Made by a program: the position numbers and the translations under genes. Shown here in pieces: positions 39,905 through 47,321 of a stretch of DNA of 64,000 nt. How positions within the stretch are numbered: the stretch's first letter is position 1; every line of letters begins with the position of its first letter. This DNA comes from Alphaproteobacteria bacterium. GTDB taxonomy: Bacteria; Pseudomonadota; Alphaproteobacteria; SP197. The stretch is from contig OZ245842.1 of NCBI GenBank assembly GCA_965228895.1, forward strand, positions 1,312,001 through 1,376,000, read 5' to 3'. Under the pieces are notes generated by a model. The model was given only the letters and a program-made list of their open reading frames with translations, was not told where the DNA came from and searched no databases.

Positions 39905-42900
39905 ATGAACGTGGTCGACCGACAGTCGGAACATCTCCTGCCGGTGATGAACGGCGAGCGCAAGGTCGTCACGGTCATCTTTGCCGATATCGTAAGGTCG
40001 TCTGAGCTTGTCGCCGGGCACGACCCGGAAGACGCCAACGACCATCTGCTTCCAATTCTGCAGGCCATGATCGATGCCGTGCATCGCTTCGGCGGCACGG
40101 TCAACCAGATCCTGGGCGATGGTATTATGGCCGTGTTTGGCGCGCCGATGGCCCAGGAGGACCACGCGCTGCGCGCCTGCCTGGCCGCGCAGGTGATGCA
40201 GATGATGGCCACCCATGCCTTGCGCAACAGCGTCTGCGACGCCCTACGCAACCATCGCATCAGGATCGGCATCAGCTCCGGTGACGTGGTGGCGCAGACT
40301 CTGAAGGGCGACTTCCACACCGAGTACCGCATTGTCGGCGAGACGGTTTATCGTGCGTCACGGCTTGAGAACGCCGCGACACCAGGCAGCATTTTTGTCT
40401 GTCGCGACACCGTTCGCCTGTCGCGCGGCGCGGTCGACGCCGAGGCGGTCGGCGCCGTAACGCTGTCGACCGAGGCGCGCGCCATCGAAGCCATGCGGCT
40501 GAAGGCCGTTGCGACCTCTCACAACCTGTCTGACCACACCGCAGAGACCGGCGCTCCAGCATTGGTTGGCCGCCAGGACGAGCTGGCCGACTTAAGAAAT
40601 TGTCTGGCCGAAACCGCGACGGGTTCGGGAACGTCGATCGTGGTGACATCCGACGCCGGCGTTGGCAAGTCCAGGATTATCCGCGAGCTGGTCGACGATT
40701 TGTCTGAACGTGACTATCGCGTCGTCGAATGCGAGTTGCACCCCACGGGCCTGGCGCGCCCCAGCGGTACCATTACGCGCGTCCTGCGCGGTGTGCTCGG
40801 TTTGCTTGCCGACGACCGGGAAGCGCTGGAGTTCCGTCTCGATCAGATTGATCTGCGTGATCCCATCTTGCGTGTCGCGCTGTTGGATGTGCTTGGCCAT
40901 CCGGTCGAGCATCCGGGTTGGGTCGAAAGCTCGCCGTCCGAAAAACTTCGTTTGACCGTCGATGCGGCAACGTCGGTCATCATCGACGTGGCGCGCGACA
41001 AGCCGGTCGTCATCGTGCTTGAGGATGTTCACTGGGCCGATACCCAGTCCCGCGCGTTTGCCAAAGAATTGTCCGGCCGTGTTTCGGATGCCGCCGTCTT
41101 GATGCTCGCGACGTCGCGCATTTGGAGCGAGCCTGTTTGGTCCGAATGGCCCGGCGTACGCGAATTGCGCCTTGAGTCGTTGATGCCCGATCAGACCGAG
41201 CGTTTGCTCGATCGCATGCTCGGCGTTCGCAAGGAGCTCGCCCATCTGAAACAGCGCCTGGTCGACATGACCCAGGGCGTCCCGTTCTTTATTGTCGAGT
41301 GCGTCCGGAGCCTTAAGGAAACCGGCGCTTTGCAAGGTCAGTTCGGCAGTTATCGACTGATGGTGCCGATGACCGAGATCAGCATTCCGGCAACGGTCCA
41401 CGGCTTGCTGGCCGCGCGGATCGACACGCTTCCGGCAGCCGACCGTTATGTCCTGCTTTGTGCCGCGGTCGTCGGTCAAAGTTTCGACGTCGGCCTGTTG
41501 CAGGAGATTACGGGTCGCAAGTCGCAGGACATCTTGATGCAGCTGAACCGGCTGCAGGCAGCGGGTTTCGTGAACCGCACCCGCATCGTGCCCAACCTAG
41601 AATTCAGTTTCCAACATGCGCTGACGCATGACGTCGCCTACGAGACGTTGCTGAAGAGCCTGCGCCGGGATTTGCACGGTCTGCTGATGAACGCGCTGGA
41701 GCACCGGCGCTCGGATCAAATGCCAGGCCGGATCGAACTGCTGGCCCATCACGCGTTCCGTGCTCAAGATTGGCCGAAGAGTGTCGTCTATAGTCGCCTT
41801 GCCGGTCGTGAGATGCTGACGGCATCGCGCAATGCGGAGGCCGGTCAGTGTTTTGAGCAGGGATTAAGCTCTCTCGACCAACTCGAGGACACCTCGCGCA
41901 ACGCGGAACGTCGCGTCGATTTCCACATCGAGCTGATTCAGGCGTACTTCCCGCTCGGTCAAGGCGACCGCGTTAAAACGCATATCGATCGTGCCGAAGA
42001 GATCGCTGAGAAGCTGTCCGACTACCGCCGACTTGGCCACCTCGCGTCATACAAAAGCCTTTACCTGTGGTCGGTCGGCAAGGTCGCCAGGGCGATCTCC
42101 ACCGGAAAGTCGGCGCTTGGGTTGGCGCGCAAGCGCGGCGACCGGGATCTCGAAATCCACGTTGCCGGTCGTTTAGGGGCATTGTTGGTCGATCGCGGCG
42201 ATTTCGACGCGGCTTGTGCCCTGTTGGAACGAGCGATCAGTTTGATCCCGCCCGAAATGAACCACAGACGGTTCGGGCTGTTGCCGGTAGCGTCGGTGAC
42301 CACGTTGGCGTCGCTGTCGCGTGGCTTGGCCGAGTTGGGCGATTTCAAAAAGGCGCTGCAGTACGGCGACCAGGCGATCCAGATCGCCGATGAGGTTGGA
42401 CACGGTTTCAGCCAGATTTACGCCAATCTTTGGGTCGGCAACGCCTTGATCAAAAAAGGCGATTTCGAGCGAAGCATTCCCCCGCTGGAACGTTGCCTTG
42501 CGCTTTGTGAAAAGACCGAACTTGATTTGCTTTATCCGCGCAGCAAAAGTTCGCTCGGTTATGCCTACATGCATGTCGGCCGAAACGATGAGGCATCGGC
42601 CTTGTTGACCGAAGCCATCGATGACGCAGGCAACGGGCCGACACGCTGGAACAACGCCCAGCAGCTTGCTTGGTATGCCGAATTCCTTCTGCGCAACGGT
42701 AACGTCGAGGAAGCGAGCAAATGCGCGGTACAGGCGCTGGAGCTTGCCGTTGAGTCGGGCGAGAAGGCGTCGGAGGCATGGTCGCTGCTGCTTTTGGGCC
42801 AGGTCCAGAATTCACTGTGTGCTCAGCCAGAGCCGACGGCCCATCGCTATCTGACAAAAGCCTGGGACATGGCGGTTGCGCACCGCATGGGGCCTCTGGC

Positions 42901-43081
42901 TGCCCACTGCCATCGTGGCCTAGCGGACTTTTACATGCGTCACAACGCGCCGCAGAAAGCCCATGCGGAGATTGATGCTGCACTGAGCTATTACGGCCGG
43001 CACGGCATGGACACCTGGTTGCGTTATGCGCGCATGGACCTGCAACTCGTCGGCGACCTTCGCGCCGAGCGCGTTCACTAG
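39905..43081 (+). CDS. Class III adenylate/guanylate cyclase - STAND (AAA) ATPase - TPR protein
   Basis: ERKVVTVIFADI, LGDGIMAVFGAP..EDHA.RA, RIGISSG, LVGRQDEL, Walker A DAGVGKSR, Walker B VIVLEDVHWAD, GVPFF, FQHAL..DVAY and helical TPR-like C-terminus. Confidence 0.9.
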   Translation: MNVVDRQSEHLLPVMNGERKVVTVIFADIVRSSELVAGHDPEDANDHLLPILQAMIDAVHRFGGTVNQILGDGIMAVFGAPMAQEDHALRACLAAQVMQMMATHALRNSVCDALRNHRIRIGISSGDVVAQTLKGDFHTEYRIVGETVYRASRLENAATPGSIFVCRDTVRLSRGAVDAEAVGAVTLSTEARAIEAMRLKAVATSHNLSDHTAETGAPALVGRQDELADLRNCLAETATGSGTSIVVTSDAGVGKSRIIRELVDDLSERDYRVVECELHPTGLARPSGTITRVLRGVLGLLADDREALEFRLDQIDLRDPILRVALLDVLGHPVEHPGWVESSPSEKLRLTVDAATSVIIDVARDKPVVIVLEDVHWADTQSRAFAKELSGRVSDAAVLMLATSRIWSEPVWSEWPGVRELRLESLMPDQTERLLDRMLGVRKELAHLKQRLVDMTQGVPFFIVECVRSLKETGALQGQFGSYRLMVPMTEISIPATVHGLLAARIDTLPAADRYVLLCAAVVGQSFDVGLLQEITGRKSQDILMQLNRLQAAGFVNRTRIVPNLEFSFQHALTHDVAYETLLKSLRRDLHGLLMNALEHRRSDQMPGRIELLAHHAFRAQDWPKSVVYSRLAGREMLTASRNAEAGQCFEQGLSSLDQLEDTSRNAERRVDFHIELIQAYFPLGQGDRVKTHIDRAEEIAEKLSDYRRLGHLASYKSLYLWSVGKVARAISTGKSALGLARKRGDRDLEIHVAGRLGALLVDRGDFDAACALLERAISLIPPEMNHRRFGLLPVASVTTLASLSRGLAELGDFKKALQYGDQAIQIADEVGHGFSQIYANLWVGNALIKKGDFERSIPPLERCLALCEKTELDLLYPRSKSSLGYAYMHVGRNDEASALLTEAIDDAGNGPTRWNNAQQLAWYAEFLLRNGNVEEASKCAVQALELAVESGEKASEAWSLLLLGQVQNSLCAQPEPTAHRYLTKAWDMAVAHRMGPLAAHCHRGLADFYMRHNAPQKAHAEIDAALSYYGRHGMDTWLRYARMDLQLVGDLRAERVH

Positions 43082-43297: not shown

Positions 43298-43313
43298 TGT
43301 GAACCAATTCACA
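43298..43313. promoter_or_regulatory. CRP/Fnr-family binding site TGTGA-N6-TCACA
   Basis: TGTGA ACCAAT TCACA is a perfect CRP core consensus, ending 71 nt upstream of the precursor ATG. Confidence 0.75.
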
Positions 43314-43384
43314 GACGGCCAAGACCCCCGTTGGTAGCCCTGATCTTGTCTGTGGCTTGGCAGAAAGTGATCAGGAGGTTGCTA

Positions 43385-44185
43385 ATGGCAACTACGCTTA
43401 GTGAGGGCACACTGCTGCGTGGCCCTGATGGTATCCTGTACCGTGTCCATGCTGGACACGCGATGGAGGTCCACGAGCCCCGTGCTGGTGAAACTTCCGA
43501 TGTTACCTTCAACAGTGAGGAACGCGAATGGTCTGCAGCGGACCATGCCTCGTCCCGCCTAGCGATCGACCCGGGCGACAGTGCGTCGTCGCGTTTGGCG
43601 ATTGATCCGGGTGACCATGCGTCGTCCCGTCTGGCTATCGAACCGTCGGAAGACTATTCGATGGCCGCCGGCGACAGCGCATCGTCGCGTCTCGCGATCG
43701 ATCCGGGCGATCATGCATCGTCGCGCTTGGCGATTGATCCGGGTGACCATGCGTCGTCCCGTCTGGCTATCGAACCGTCGGAAGACTATTCGATGGCCGC
43801 CGGCGACAGCGCATCGTCGCGTCTCGCGATCGATCCGGGCGATCATGCATCGTCGCGCTTGGCGATTGATCCGGGTGACTATGCGTCGTCCCGTCTGGCT
43901 ATCGAACCGTCGGAAGACTATTCGATGGCCGCCGGCGACAGCGCATCGTCGCGTCTCGCGATCGATCCGGGCGATCATGCATCGTCGCGCTTGGCGATTG
44001 ATCCGGGTGACTATGCGTCGTCCCGTCTGGCTATCGAACCGTCGGAAGACTATTCGATGGCCGCCGGCGACAGCGCGTCGTCGCGTCTCGCGATCGATCC
44101 GGGCGATCATGCATCGTCGCGTTTGGCGATTGATCCAGGTGACCATGCCTCGTCGCGTCTGGCCATCGAGCCTGGCCAGATCTGA
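43385..44185 (+). CDS. Putative multi-core RiPP precursor or YcaO-TfuA substrate (53-aa leader plus 15 repeats)
   Basis: AGGAGG RBS before ATG 43385; 266 aa. ASSRLAI occurs 15 times, encoded with synonymous codon variation. Lies immediately upstream of ycaO-tfuA on the same strand. Confidence 0.8.
   Translation: MATTLSEGTLLRGPDGILYRVHAGHAMEVHEPRAGETSDVTFNSEEREWSAADHASSRLAIDPGDSASSRLAIDPGDHASSRLAIEPSEDYSMAAGDSASSRLAIDPGDHASSRLAIDPGDHASSRLAIEPSEDYSMAAGDSASSRLAIDPGDHASSRLAIDPGDYASSRLAIEPSEDYSMAAGDSASSRLAIDPGDHASSRLAIDPGDYASSRLAIEPSEDYSMAAGDSASSRLAIDPGDHASSRLAIDPGDHASSRLAIEPGQI
43544..44182 (+). repeat. Hierarchical coding tandem repeat: five 132-bp blocks (36+36+60 bp), last block truncated
   Basis: Blocks start at 43544, 43676, 43808, 43940 and 44072. 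Blocks 3 and 4 read as identical, and block 2 differs from them by one base (CAT/TAT). Confidence 0.95.
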
Positions 44186-44350
44186 GGTAGGCTGACGTGA
44201 ACGCCGCCGGTCATGTGGGTGGTAACAACGTGTGGGCAGGCGCCGTGGTCTTGTTGAGCCCGGTGTATCAAGCCCGCCAGTCCGTCCATGTGCCGGCGGC
44301 GTTCTTTGAGTCATGCAAAACCGACAAGCCGAGAGAACTTGAGAGCTTTT

Positions 44351-45628
44351 ATGCGCGCATCAAATTCGATGCTGGCGGCCGCCCCAGGCAACCCGCTGGC
44401 AGGTATCGCATCGGTCCAGAAGGCATACGATGCCGGCACGCACCGGCTGATTGCACCACAGGAAACCGTCGAACGCATCAAACCCTTGATGCCGGTGATG
44501 GGGATAACACGTATAGCCAACGTTACAGGACTGGATACTATTGGTATTCCGGTAGTAATGGTGAGCCGACCAAATTCCAGGTCGATTTCGGTGGCACAGG
44601 GCAAGGGCGCATCACTTGACGCGGCAAAGGCATCCGGTCTGATGGAATCAGTTGAGAGCTACCACGCCGAGCGCATCTCTCTGCCCCTTATGTTGGGTAG
44701 CTACGAGGACATTCGCTACAACCACAACGTAGTCGATGTCGACCGGCTGCCACACCTGACGGACAGTCTCTACACACCAAATACCCAACTCTTGTGGATA
44801 GAGGGACGCGATCTGATATCCGATCAGGGGGTATGGGTACCCTATGAGATGGTCCACCTGGACTATACGCTCCCGCTGCCCACCGGGCACGGGTGCTTCG
44901 TGCCCAGTTCCAACGGTTTGGCGTCGGGCAACCATCTGTTCGAGGCCATCTCGCACGGGATCTCTGAGGTCGTCGAACGCGACGCCGTCACCTTGTGGCA
45001 TCTGCTCGACTCTGAAGAACAGGAGCGCACGCGTGTCAATCTGGACACGGTCGATGATCCCGTTTGTCGCGAGTTGCTGGAGAAGTACGCCGATGCCGGC
45101 GTGTTGGTCGCGGTATGGGAGGTCACATCGGACATCGGCATGCCCGCCTTCCTGTGCCGCATCCTTCAGGAAGCACCGCCACCCTATAACGATTACCGGC
45201 CGGCCAGTGGCATGGGCTGTCACCCGGCGCGCCATATCGCTTTGTCGCGTGCCCTAACCGAAGCGGCGCAGAGCCGACTGACATTCATCTCCGGCGCCCG
45301 CGATGATCTCTGGCGTTCGGACTATGACAGTTTCCTGGACCCCGAAACCCACAAGATATGGCTGTCCTACATGGAGTCGACCTGGGAAGGCCGTAACTTC
45401 CAGGACATGCCGACGTTTATCGGCGGTTCGTTTGAAGAGGATATCTCCTGGGAGGTCGACCGGCTTGTCGACGTCGGCGTGACGCAGGTCGTCGCGGTTG
45501 ATCTGACAAAGTCGGAGTTCGGCATCCCTGTCGTGCGGGTGATCATCCCGGGTCTGGAGGGTATGGACCATTCACCGAAGTATGTACCCGGCGAGCGGGC
45601 CCGCAAGTTGCTGAAGAGGCGCACATGA
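44351..45628 (+). CDS. ycaO: YcaO family protein (TfuA-associated, thioamide-forming type)
   Basis: GTHR..PQET, GITRIANVTGLD.IGIPV, QGKG..AKASGLMESVES, SSNGLASG..EVVERDA, RALTEAAQSR and PVVRVIIPGLE; no C-terminal PxPxP. Start uncertain (44288/44351/44369). Confidence 0.93.
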   Translation: MRASNSMLAAAPGNPLAGIASVQKAYDAGTHRLIAPQETVERIKPLMPVMGITRIANVTGLDTIGIPVVMVSRPNSRSISVAQGKGASLDAAKASGLMESVESYHAERISLPLMLGSYEDIRYNHNVVDVDRLPHLTDSLYTPNTQLLWIEGRDLISDQGVWVPYEMVHLDYTLPLPTGHGCFVPSSNGLASGNHLFEAISHGISEVVERDAVTLWHLLDSEEQERTRVNLDTVDDPVCRELLEKYADAGVLVAVWEVTSDIGMPAFLCRILQEAPPPYNDYRPASGMGCHPARHIALSRALTEAAQSRLTFISGARDDLWRSDYDSFLDPETHKIWLSYMESTWEGRNFQDMPTFIGGSFEEDISWEVDRLVDVGVTQVVAVDLTKSEFGIPVVRVIIPGLEGMDHSPKYVPGERARKLLKRRT

Positions 45629-46368
45629 GCGTGTACGTTTTCATCGGGCCTTCGATCACCTTGGAGGACGCCCGCAAGGAGATCAAAGCGACGTTCATGC
45701 CGCCGGTGTCCGAGGGCGACATCACGCGTTTGGTCGCGAACGAAAAACCGCGCGCTATCGGTATCATTGACGGCTATTTCGAGAACGTTCCCAGTGTCTG
45801 GCACAAGGAAATCCTGTTCGCGATGACCCATGGCGTCCACGTCTATGGCGCCTCCAGCATGGGCGCCCTTCGGGCGGCGGAACTCTATCCGTTCGGCATG
45901 GAAGGCGTCGGCGCCGTCTTCGAGGCCTATCGTGACGGCCTGATCGAAGACGATGACGAGGTGGCCGTCATCCACGGTCCCGCTGAACTCGGCTACCCCG
46001 CGCTGTCGGAAGCCATGGTCAACATTCGCCGCACGCTCTCGGATGCCCTGCACCATCATGTGATCGGCCAGGCCACCTATCAGCGCCTGGAGGAACTGGC
46101 CAAGACGCTGTCCTATAAGGATCGCAGCTACGCCAACCTGTTCGAGCTGGCGCGTGAGTACGCCATCGACCGTCGTGAAGTCGACGCCTTTGCCTTCTGG
46201 CTGCAGACCGGACGGGCGGACCAAAAGCGCGATGATGCGCTATTGCTGTTGCGCACGATGCGCCATCAGCTGAAGGCTGATACGCCGCCGAAAGACGTGC
46301 GTTATCACTTCGAATACACGACCTTGTGGGACAGAGCCATCCGTACCGCTGCCCAAGACACCACCTAG
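45625..46368 (+). CDS. tfuA: TfuA-like protein
   Basis: VFIGPS, GIIDGYF...VWHKEIL, GASSMGALRAAEL..FGMEGVG, DDDEVAVIHGP and AMVNIR; ATGA overlap with the ycaO stop. Confidence 0.95.
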   Translation: MSVYVFIGPSITLEDARKEIKATFMPPVSEGDITRLVANEKPRAIGIIDGYFENVPSVWHKEILFAMTHGVHVYGASSMGALRAAELYPFGMEGVGAVFEAYRDGLIEDDDEVAVIHGPAELGYPALSEAMVNIRRTLSDALHHHVIGQATYQRLEELAKTLSYKDRSYANLFELAREYAIDRREVDAFAFWLQTGRADQKRDDALLLLRTMRHQLKADTPPKDVRYHFEYTTLWDRAIRTAAQDTT

Positions 46369-46586: not shown

Positions 46587-47321
46587 GTGGATGTGGACGA
46601 CGGCGTGACTGATCGTGTGACGACGAGAGTTGATCTCGATGCGCTCCGGCGCAACGAGCTGCTTGGCCAGCTCGAGCCCGACGAGATGGACGAATTTTTG
46701 GGACTGGCCAGCATTCAGACCTATCCCGCCGACCGTTTGATCTTTCAGAAGGCCGATCCTGGCGACCGTCTGTTCGCAATCGTCAGTGGGCGGGTCGGGA
46801 TTACGACGGAATCGGAGTCCGGAAAGTCCATTCTTCTGAACATGCTGAAGGCGGGTGACGTGCTTGGCGAAATTGCATTGTTGGATGGCAAGCCACGCAC
46901 CGCCAACGCGGTTGCCTTGGACGACAGCGAACTCCTCTGTGTCGAACGCTCGGATTTTCTGGCGTTCCTGGAGCGCCACCCCCGTCTTGCCATTCGGCTG
47001 ATGGGTGTTCTGTGCGACCGGTTGCGCTGGACCAGCGACATCATCGAGGACACGATGTTCCTGGACATTCCCCATCGTCTGGCGAAGCGGCTGATGGTTT
47101 TGAGCGATCAATACGGGAGAAAGACCGACGACGGCCTCTTGATCGATCTGCGCTTGTCCCAGGAGAGCTTGGGCCAGATGCTGGGCGCGACCAGAGAGAG
47201 TATCAACAAGGGGCTGAAGCTCCTGGAGCACAAAGGTCTGATCGAGAGCACCGGCGGCTATATCCGCGTTACCGATATGGACGCGCTGAGAGACTTCGGC
47301 GGCTTCGACGAGGCTGGCTGA
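46587..47321 (+). CDS. Crp/Fnr family transcriptional regulator with cNMP-binding domain
   Basis: IFQKADPGD, GEIALLDGKPRTA (phosphate-binding cassette) and HTH LSQESLGQMLGATRESINK. Start may be a later GTG. Confidence 0.92.
   Translation: MDVDDGVTDRVTTRVDLDALRRNELLGQLEPDEMDEFLGLASIQTYPADRLIFQKADPGDRLFAIVSGRVGITTESESGKSILLNMLKAGDVLGEIALLDGKPRTANAVALDDSELLCVERSDFLAFLERHPRLAIRLMGVLCDRLRWTSDIIEDTMFLDIPHRLAKRLMVLSDQYGRKTDDGLLIDLRLSQESLGQMLGATRESINKGLKLLEHKGLIESTGGYIRVTDMDALRDFGGFDEAG

Follow-up and report, generated by a model that had tools for sequence, protein, structure and literature searches.

A fifteen-core candidate peptide precursor beside a YcaO-TfuA pair in a conserved alphaproteobacterial five-gene cassette

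The window analysed here is a stretch of 64,000 nucleotides from an alphaproteobacterium (assembly GCA_965228895.1, contig OZ245842.1, positions 1,312,001 to 1,376,000), and the genome it belongs to is assembled as a single contig of 5.53 Mb. It carries a gene for a 266-residue repeat protein that is followed on the same strand by a ycaO and a tfuA gene. We consider it likely, overall, that these genes belong to a cassette of five genes whose product is a ribosomal peptide, in which a multi-core precursor is thioamidated under the control of Crp. The adjacent YcaO-TfuA pair very probably has the repeat protein as its substrate, since a conserved leader is combined with variable cores, the genes are strictly adjacent, and precursor and enzymes decay together; a backbone thioamide on the cores is the probable modification and the best chemical guess that the sequences allow. 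The anatomy of the locus, the family, its synteny and a conserved DNA site are established. What is new is the precursor family with its RG[A/P]DGxLY leader, the concatenation to 15-20 cores, and a conserved control module that consists of a cyclase-STAND gene, a Crp gene and a CRP box. The central part of the locus is arranged as follows.

43373-43378, + strand: Shine-Dalgarno sequence AGGAGG, 6 nt ahead of the precursor ATG, read from the sequence
43385-44185, + strand: precursor gene, 266 aa plus stop, with orthologues in genomes G001, G002, G007 and G010
43385-43543, + strand: leader of 53 aa with RGPDGILY at residues 12-19, supported by the invariance of R12, D15, G16 and Y19 and by a leader hidden Markov model (HMM)
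43544-44173, + strand: 15 core repeats, from a regular-expression count and Tandem Repeats Finder
44351-45628, + strand: ycaO, 425 aa, Pfam YcaO PF02624 at 2.5e-83, with an alternative in-frame ATG at 44288
45625-46368, + strand: tfuA, 247 aa, Pfam TfuA PF07812 at 3.8e-48, with an ATGA overlap with ycaO

The regular-expression count finds 15 units of [H/S/Y]ASSRLAI[D/E]P in the precursor, the first of which starts at residue 54 and thus leaves a leader of 53 residues. The cores are linked by GD, which is replaced by SEDYSMAAGD after each third core, and at the DNA level Tandem Repeats Finder describes a 132-bp super-repeat (44 aa, three cores) in 4.7 copies with 96% matches and a score of 1126. 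The protein ends with ...IEPGQI. The 10-codon unit occurs in nine distinct DNA versions; between them, the annotated frame has 149 synonymous versus 41 non-synonymous codon differences, whereas the two shifted frames have 14 versus 138 and 0 versus 147, respectively. As synonymous differences dominate in the annotated frame and not in the shifted ones, the codon pattern indicates that the reading frame is real and under selection at the protein level. Two other open reading frames (ORFs), 43559-44314 (- strand, 251 aa) and 43581-44195 (+ strand, 204 aa), were rejected as shadows of the repeat because their codon differences are almost all non-synonymous. Neither Pfam nor NCBIfam has a model that matches the precursor.

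The ycaO match spans all positions of the PF02624 profile (1-325 of 325). A gap of 165 nt separates the precursor stop (44185) from the ATG at 44351, which is most likely the ycaO start because its MRA(S/T) beginning matches the orthologues of G002 and G007; tfuA begins at 45625 and ycaO ends at 45628 (ATGA). A C-terminal PxPxP is a feature of azoline-forming YcaOs, and there is no P.P.P string anywhere in the 425-aa YcaO, the end of which reads ...YVPGERARKLLKRRT. The original prediction had described the 266-aa ORF with its ribosome binding site (RBS), the 53-aa leader, the 15 cores, the gap of about 165 bp, the coupled ycaO-tfuA pair and a YcaO without PxPxP, and all of these observations are confirmed. 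The best NCBIfam model for the YcaO is TIGR03266 (McrA-glycine thioamidation; 251.8 bits versus a cut-off of 365), and TfuA reaches 220.9 bits versus a cut-off of 235.2 with NF033432. The closest solved structures are MJ1094 (6pe3; 4.6e-43, the alignment running along the MJ1094 length) for YcaO and PDB 6xp8 (2.5e-39) for TfuA. The genome has a single tfuA copy and five ThiS-family genes. An alignment with 22 homologues shows many invariant Glu and Arg columns in YcaO, and a complex prediction of YcaO with the leader and two cores, run without controls, gave a score of 0.00 that is no evidence either way on binding.

Within the window's own family the precursor is present in five of 33 genomes (G000, G001, G002, G007 and G010); in the draft genomes among them the contigs break within the repeat. 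The five orthologues come from two genera and, despite the divergence of the DNA, have in common the leader and the repeat D[H/Y]A[S/A][S/G]RxxI[D/E][P/A]G. Leader residues T9, R12, G13, D15, G16, L18 and Y19 are invariant, the repeat has drifted (ASSRLAIDPGD, ASGRFAIE[A/P]GD, ASGRMMIEAGE), and AGGAG(G/A) stands ahead of the ATG in the window and in four orthologue loci (L002, L003, L004, L006). An orthologous YcaO (79-94% identity) is found in G002, G007 and G010 only, all of which bear the precursor. Two further genomes, G014 and G031, have just decayed ycaO fragments (with stop codons in G014) and no precursor match, and 14 other genomes of the family have only a YcaO of about 30% identity. 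As the orthologous YcaO tracks the precursor and the decay is joint, precursor and enzymes are thus both inherited and lost as a unit. Matches in G056 (24-28% identity within a 999-aa frame) were assumed to be unrelated repeats.

Some relatives show the cassette in a damaged state. L080, on the complete chromosome of a metagenome-assembled genome (MAG) of the same family, is a syntenic decayed cassette with the cyclase gene, a stop-bearing ycaO and tfuA fragments, in which crp is apparently intact. In L079, which is also syntenic, an 89-aa ycaO remnant lies beside the FMN oxidoreductase gene. A leader search in these two decayed copies found none. In G010 a transposase/integrase-like ORF (L025, 339-1253) lies directly upstream of a 5'-truncated ycaO (match from residue 109), and the leader sits on a separate contig (L006), i.e. 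either an insertion sequence has entered the cassette or the assembly is broken there. The outer flanks (Sir2, epimerase, DUF502 and oxidoreductase genes) are syntenic within the window's own family only.

A much larger family is found from the precursor side. A profile of the five precursor N-termini, compared with 1.84 billion cluster representatives, gave 74 matches at E <= 1e-3 and 34 at E <= 1e-10. The leader is present in 62 of the 74, four are leaderless family fragments, and eight long repeat proteins unrelated to the family were discarded. A 12-residue period with the consensus D[H/Y]xxxRxx[I/V][D/E]PG is found in 30 of the 62 leader-bearing relatives. The repeat Arg and the unit-initial Asp are each at least 90% conserved, and leader residues R12, D15, G16 and Y19 are invariant in 36 members. 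Where source names exist, the leader-bearing relatives are called 'hypothetical protein' throughout. Family members from metagenomes are at most 167 aa long, which is probably due to repeat collapse in short-read assemblies. A subset of the precursors (P0002, P0009, P0013, P0020, P0008, P0017, P0027 and L009 1-225) bears a conserved tail past the last repeat, ...[S/G]R[P/L]xFTVDPxxV or ...PSRLTV[D/E]PxxV; the window precursor is without such a tail.

A profile of 36 members was also run on 400 evenly drawn further alphaproteobacterial genomes, where it gave seven matches. Six of these are genuine, with ycaO directly downstream in five and the sixth at a contig edge; the seventh (L207, E = 2.9e-4) was dismissed as false, having neither a leader nor a YcaO. 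L201 (G127:C24:27429-30719, - strand, approximately 874-1797), which comes from a different family of Alphaproteobacteria, has a gene for a precursor of 308 aa with the same type of leader and DADAGRWA[I/V][S/T]P repeated 20 times; a CRP box lies upstream, and the gene is flanked by a cyclase gene and, at its opposite side, by ycaO. The precursors of L202 and L203 are single-core. The 15 cores of the window are thus a large number and not a record, given the 20 of the G127 relative, and the uniqueness implied by the original prediction gives way to a family of at least 62 cluster representatives. A degenerate DNA pattern (two DPGD motifs 36 nt apart) returned no family member or YcaO among the 80 loci listed.

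The same family was reached from the enzyme side, by a scan with one genome per species that gave 58 loci with YcaOs 44-81% identical. The loci belong to Alphaproteobacteria, Myxococcota, Chloroflexota, Acidobacteriota and Actinomycetota, and tfuA adjoins ycaO in 56 of them. An HMM of the leader, made from RG.DG.[LIVMF][YFW] matches, was used to search 11,080 ORF segments of at least 30 aa from the 58 loci. It found 15 matches, 14 of which lie directly upstream of ycaO on the same strand, a position class that makes up 3.85% of all ORF segments in these loci; the fifteenth (L032) lies just downstream of tfuA. The original prediction had held that the repeat protein is the substrate of the YcaO-TfuA pair and had suggested a search of the neighbourhoods of the closest YcaO/TfuA homologues. 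As far as sequences can tell, leader family, adjacency and joint decay strongly support this substrate role.

The cores behind the common leader are very diverse. Two Kiloniellales genomes have 9 and 4 repeats of D[Y/H]xAGRM[A/V]IEA, Niveispirillum and an Azospirillum sp. have a single ...AAPRLAMDVG... core, and DDHLAGEMIYG and GDYFGGAIVCEA are other examples of single cores. Outside the Alphaproteobacteria, FASSW occurs three times in an Anaerolineae genome and AGFT repeats are found in Chloroflexia. Single-core relatives of 55-65 aa are present in the same YcaO clade. The hallmark of a precursor of peptides that are made by the ribosome and modified after translation (RiPPs) is thus seen here, i.e. 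a conserved leader, hypervariable cores and a position beside the enzyme. Judged by the RG[A/P]DGxLY motif, which stands beside related YcaO-TfuA pairs across several phyla, the family is widespread and undescribed.

The remaining loci, mostly myxobacterial, have upstream ORFs with a looser motif (e.g. AADNGKLYYL) and a C-terminal CYLVNL-like core. In ten loci of myxobacterial, acidobacterial and actinobacterial origin (L043, L048, L052, L073, L035, L039, L044, L045, L071, L075), ORFs of 90-260 aa end just 5' of ycaO and contain a looser leader (AADNGKLYYL, GEDGSIYAV) and a C-terminal ...CY[L/V][V/L]NL... motif. As these two elements recur upstream of ycaO in distant loci, the sequences suggest a larger superfamily of precursors, in which the RGxDGxLY family would be one branch. 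Four loci with more distant YcaO-TfuA pairs (47-49% identity), from Hyphomicrobiales-like MAGs, have proteins of approximately 190-290 aa located 2-3 kb downstream of tfuA (L058 9937-10803, L059 9232-9918, L063 9886-10548, L065 4909-5475). These proteins have a conserved N-terminal domain followed by 5-8 pentapeptide repeats (GSRVS, GARVS, VSGSK, GGGKV) and may be another type of repeat-core precursor, with a large leader domain.

In the window, the precursor and its two enzymes are enclosed by two regulatory genes, and a palindrome precedes the precursor gene.

39905-43081, + strand: cyclase-STAND regulator, 1058 aa (Pfam Guanylate_cyc 5.9e-19, AAA_16 3.9e-21, TPR_12 4.1e-18), first gene of the cassette
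43298-43313, no strand assigned: CRP-type palindrome TGTGAACCAATTCACA, 72-87 nt ahead of the precursor ATG
46587-47321, + strand: Crp-family regulator (Pfam cNMP-binding 8.3e-25, HTH_Crp_2 2.8e-17), last gene of the cassette

In the cyclase-STAND protein, a class III nucleotide cyclase domain is combined with an AAA_16 (STAND) ATPase and with TPR repeats. Genes homologous to it are located upstream, in the same orientation, in L024, L026, L029, L031, L034, L036, L201-L205 and in G007 (L004). Eleven of the 58 YcaO loci, each from an alphaproteobacterial relative, have a Crp homologue (48-68% identity) directly after tfuA. When the window and five loci of other orders are compared all against all, the genes in common are cyclase-STAND, YcaO, TfuA and Crp only. 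On the strength of these comparisons, a conserved alphaproteobacterial five-gene cassette of cyclase-STAND, precursor, YcaO, TfuA and Crp is new here; the conserved cyclase-STAND gene, the Crp gene and the CRP box go beyond the original prediction. The 15 YcaOs of the cassette type form one set in a quick maximum-likelihood tree (SH-aLRT 99), from which seven rows were left out (matches below 300 aa or with masked residues). In this tree multi-core precursors are found in at least two branches of the set, with single-core forms between them. Further neighbours in the window are genes for an AraC/DJ-1 regulator, a short-chain dehydrogenase, DUF309, Sir2, epimerase, DUF502 and FMN oxidoreductase proteins and a MAPEG protein; none of the Pfam-annotated neighbours is a RiPP tailoring enzyme or a transporter.

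The perfect palindrome TGTGA-N6-TCACA occurs once in the 64-kb window versus 0.09 expected occurrences. At the equivalent position, which is 85-145 nt upstream, all of the 13 alphaproteobacterial precursor loci compared carry a CRP box, in one case with one mismatch. L201 and L203-L206 have the box too, and L202 has it with one mismatch. The box is found in none of the five precursor loci from other phyla, which are also without a crp gene. The half-sites are constant and the six-base spacer has at least 12 different sequences, although several of these loci are close kin and not all are independent; fixed half-sites with a variable spacer are the pattern of a protein-binding site.

The spacer between the precursor gene and ycaO contains one more element.

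44199-44304, + strand: long RNA hairpin, found by folding; a candidate attenuator or transcript-stabilising element

The folding energy of the 170-nt spacer stretch is -76.7 kcal/mol (z = -4.46), a value that none of 200 shuffled sequences reaches. The equivalent spacers have z values of -4.18 (G002), -2.67 (G007), -3.17 (L024, a hairpin with a U-tract) and -0.24 (L026). A consensus fold has six pairs with compensatory changes, but its three sequences are too few to build on. A partial terminator or stabiliser after the precursor gene is common in RiPP operons. A weak hint of precursor expression comes from five contigs (162-248 nt) of three marine metatranscriptome libraries of one study, which are at least 99% identical to 43361-43587 and 43946-44176; the hint is weak because DNA carry-over is possible and there is no silent control stretch. 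The contigs do not cover ycaO or tfuA, and as the runs were chosen by shared words, they are silent on relative expression. One contig of run X2 leaves the window sequence at 44176, the end of the last repeat, and adds a further repeat variant. Since this contig continues into another repeat unit, it indicates that the number of repeats varies between strains.

YcaOs that have a TfuA partner are known for thioamidation. Azoline formation was considered as the reaction of the family and ruled out as such, since the cores of at least six family members are without Cys, Ser or Thr. Available text of one report describes TfuA as a hydrolase by which thiocarboxylated ThiS homologues are made to yield the sulfide that it delivers (PMC13063428). 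The mechanism that we propose would start with the recognition of the leader of the multi-core precursor by YcaO via RG[A/P]DGxLY. With ATP, YcaO would activate one backbone amide in each of the 15 cores, and TfuA would supply sulfide, probably from a thiocarboxylated ThiS-like carrier, so that each core would gain a backbone thioamide. By analogy with the thiovarsolins, the likeliest site would be the small-residue stretch right before the near-invariant Arg. Transcription of precursor, ycaO and tfuA may depend on the Crp of the cassette bound to the TGTGA-N6-TCACA box, this Crp being presumably loaded with a cyclic nucleotide made by the cyclase-STAND-TPR protein, and the hairpin 3' of the precursor gene would favour an excess of precursor transcript over enzyme transcript. 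Here we infer the thioamide, its position, this regulatory logic and any release of the peptides by host peptidases.

Several points weigh against this proposal. No product was observed, and the presence of a thioamide, its position and how many cores carry it are all deduced from sequence. The YcaO and TfuA of the window are, by their profile scores, relatives of the McrA thioamidation pair and not members of it, because both score below the NCBIfam equivalog cut-offs. Pfam matches reveal no protease, exporter or immunity gene within about 6 kb of the cassette, and no protease or exporter is conserved with it in the five loci from other orders; the release of small peptides is therefore unsupported. 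G001 has the leader and no ycaO match, in a 500-contig draft that is 95% complete. No cyclase-STAND gene was found beside the cassette in L037, L038 and L206. The CRP box is a predicted binding site that does not itself indicate which regulator binds. Finally, many of the compared loci are close kin, so that the counts overstate their independence.

The missing protease and exporter would fit a different fate of the product, in which the thioamidated repeat protein stays uncut and serves as an intact cytoplasmic poly-thioamide protein, either as a soft-metal (Cu/Zn) buffer or as a redox/sulfur store. By pure conjecture, the thioamide sulfur and, at each DPGDH junction, the Asp/His would jointly bind the metal; in the family alignment Asp and His/Tyr indeed border nearly every core. 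The copy number, grown to 15 and 20, would suit a polyvalent binder, and no signal peptide is visible by eye in the leader. We nevertheless regard this as unlikely: the relatives of 55-65 aa with one core that belong to the same YcaO clade would hardly act as polyvalent proteins, and the absence of a protease is not informative, as the thiovarsolins are freed without a cluster protease according to the sections of their description that we could draw on (PMC6511847).

The chemistry might also differ. Three reaction types are known for YcaO enzymes, and the one of the window could carry out another ATP-dependent backbone reaction (amidine formation, an azoline at the core Ser, or the addition of another nucleophile), with TfuA employed otherwise. 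The Ser-Ser in the window's own core and a YcaO score below the equivalog cut-off of the thioamidation model are compatible with this, but tfuA is adjacent in 56 of the 58 related loci, six family members have cores devoid of Cys, Ser and Thr, Pfam reveals neither a cyclodehydratase partner nor a dehydrogenase gene nearby, and the YcaO is without the C-terminal PxPxP of the azoline-forming enzymes. We hold such a reaction to be quite improbable. It is hardly credible, in our view, that the repeat ORF is no substrate at all, i.e. that it is a repeat-rich passenger gene or a non-coding array and that YcaO-TfuA modify another protein. The binding and modification of the repeat protein are deduced, and its AlphaFold2 model, from a single sequence, has a mean pLDDT (predicted local distance difference test) of 41.7, which is compatible with disorder and too weak for use. 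However, synonymous changes dominate only in the annotated frame, the RBS and the start codon are conserved, the leader is conserved across phyla beside ycaO, and precursor and enzymes decay together. We thus return to the thioamidated multi-core precursor as the preferred explanation.

On top of this explanation, one may speculate about the biological role, with low expectations. The cassette might be a self-contained peptide signalling or stress module, gated by a cyclic nucleotide and possibly forming an auto-inducing thioamide-peptide circuit, and not an antibiotic cluster. In such a module, the STAND cyclase with its TPR repeats would sense the modified peptide or an environmental cue and make the cyclic nucleotide, and Crp would then switch on the concatenated precursor, so that one round of translation would give 15-20 thioamidated peptides. 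If true, this would be a signalling circuit conserved across several alphaproteobacterial orders, and one branch of an RGxDGxLY leader family that spans Chloroflexota, Acidobacteriota, Myxococcota and Pseudomonadota.

Irrespective of the role, the locus offers, in a complete genome, a minimal system of precursor, YcaO and TfuA with clear limits, and we regard it as a strong lead for mining and biochemistry and not as a conceptual surprise. The leader motif offers a way to find the precursors of the whole YcaO clade across phyla, the natural 15-fold substrate should help to study how processive thioamidation is and how its sites are selected, and the cyclase, Crp and CRP box provide a testable hypothesis for switching on a silent cluster.

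It is instructive to compare this system with the known ones. To our knowledge, all characterised YcaO-TfuA peptide products come from Actinobacteria. A global mining study of TfuA lists thousands of proteobacterial clusters, and its main text assigns no precursors or products to them (PMC8120280); the word 'repeat' and the window's precursor family are absent from that main text, and the supplements may list the cluster. The closest curated models and structures are those of the archaeal McrA thioglycine system (MJ1094, PDB 6pe3/6peu; TfuA PDB 6xp8), the substrate of which is a folded enzyme subunit, as opposed to a leader-bearing repeat peptide. Multi-core RiPPs such as cyanobactins, some graspetides and fungal dikaritins resemble the window's precursor in having one leader, many tandem cores and a variable copy number, but they use other enzymes and have recognisable flanking protease sites and proteases, none of which is evident in the window. 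The thioamitides (thioviridamide, thioholgamide, thiostreptamide S4) have one core and undergo heavy tailoring (AviCys macrocycle, histidine modifications). They have in common with our system a YcaO-TfuA pair that presumably adds backbone thioamides to a ribosomal precursor, whereas the window has 15 cores and, in or near the cassette, no such tailoring genes. For these two reasons the locus should not be called a thioamitide, and this label of the original prediction is dropped.

The closest described system is that of the thiovarsolins of Streptomyces varsoviensis, which were also the sole precedent found for repeat or multi-core YcaO/TfuA precursors in the article texts at hand. In the portions available of their description, the precursors carry one to five tandem imperfect core repeats, and varA, varY and varT suffice for thiovarsolin formation, with no protease in the cluster (PMC6511847). 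The premise of the original prediction, that YcaO-TfuA precursors have a single core, thus has to be revised. The likeness consists of a repeat-core precursor, YcaO together with TfuA, and the lack of a dedicated protease. According to the same portions, the thiovarsolin thioamide precedes an Arg, lying between Pro and Arg of APR; the APR/GPR core and the D[H/Y]ASSRLAI[D/E]PG of the window have only one trait in common, the Arg after small residues. The numbers of repeats are different as well (at most five in thiovarsolins, as far as that text goes, versus 15 in the window and 20 in its relative). The var-type neighbours that it names (heme oxygenase, amidinotransferase and ATP-grasp; PMC6511847) are not found among the Pfam matches of the window's neighbours, and the cyclase/Crp/CRP-box module of the window cassette is a further difference from the thiovarsolin cluster. 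The thiovarsolins belong to Actinobacteria and the window to Alphaproteobacteria. The system of the window works like the thiovarsolins without being a member of them, and is set apart by its core, its neighbours and its phylum.

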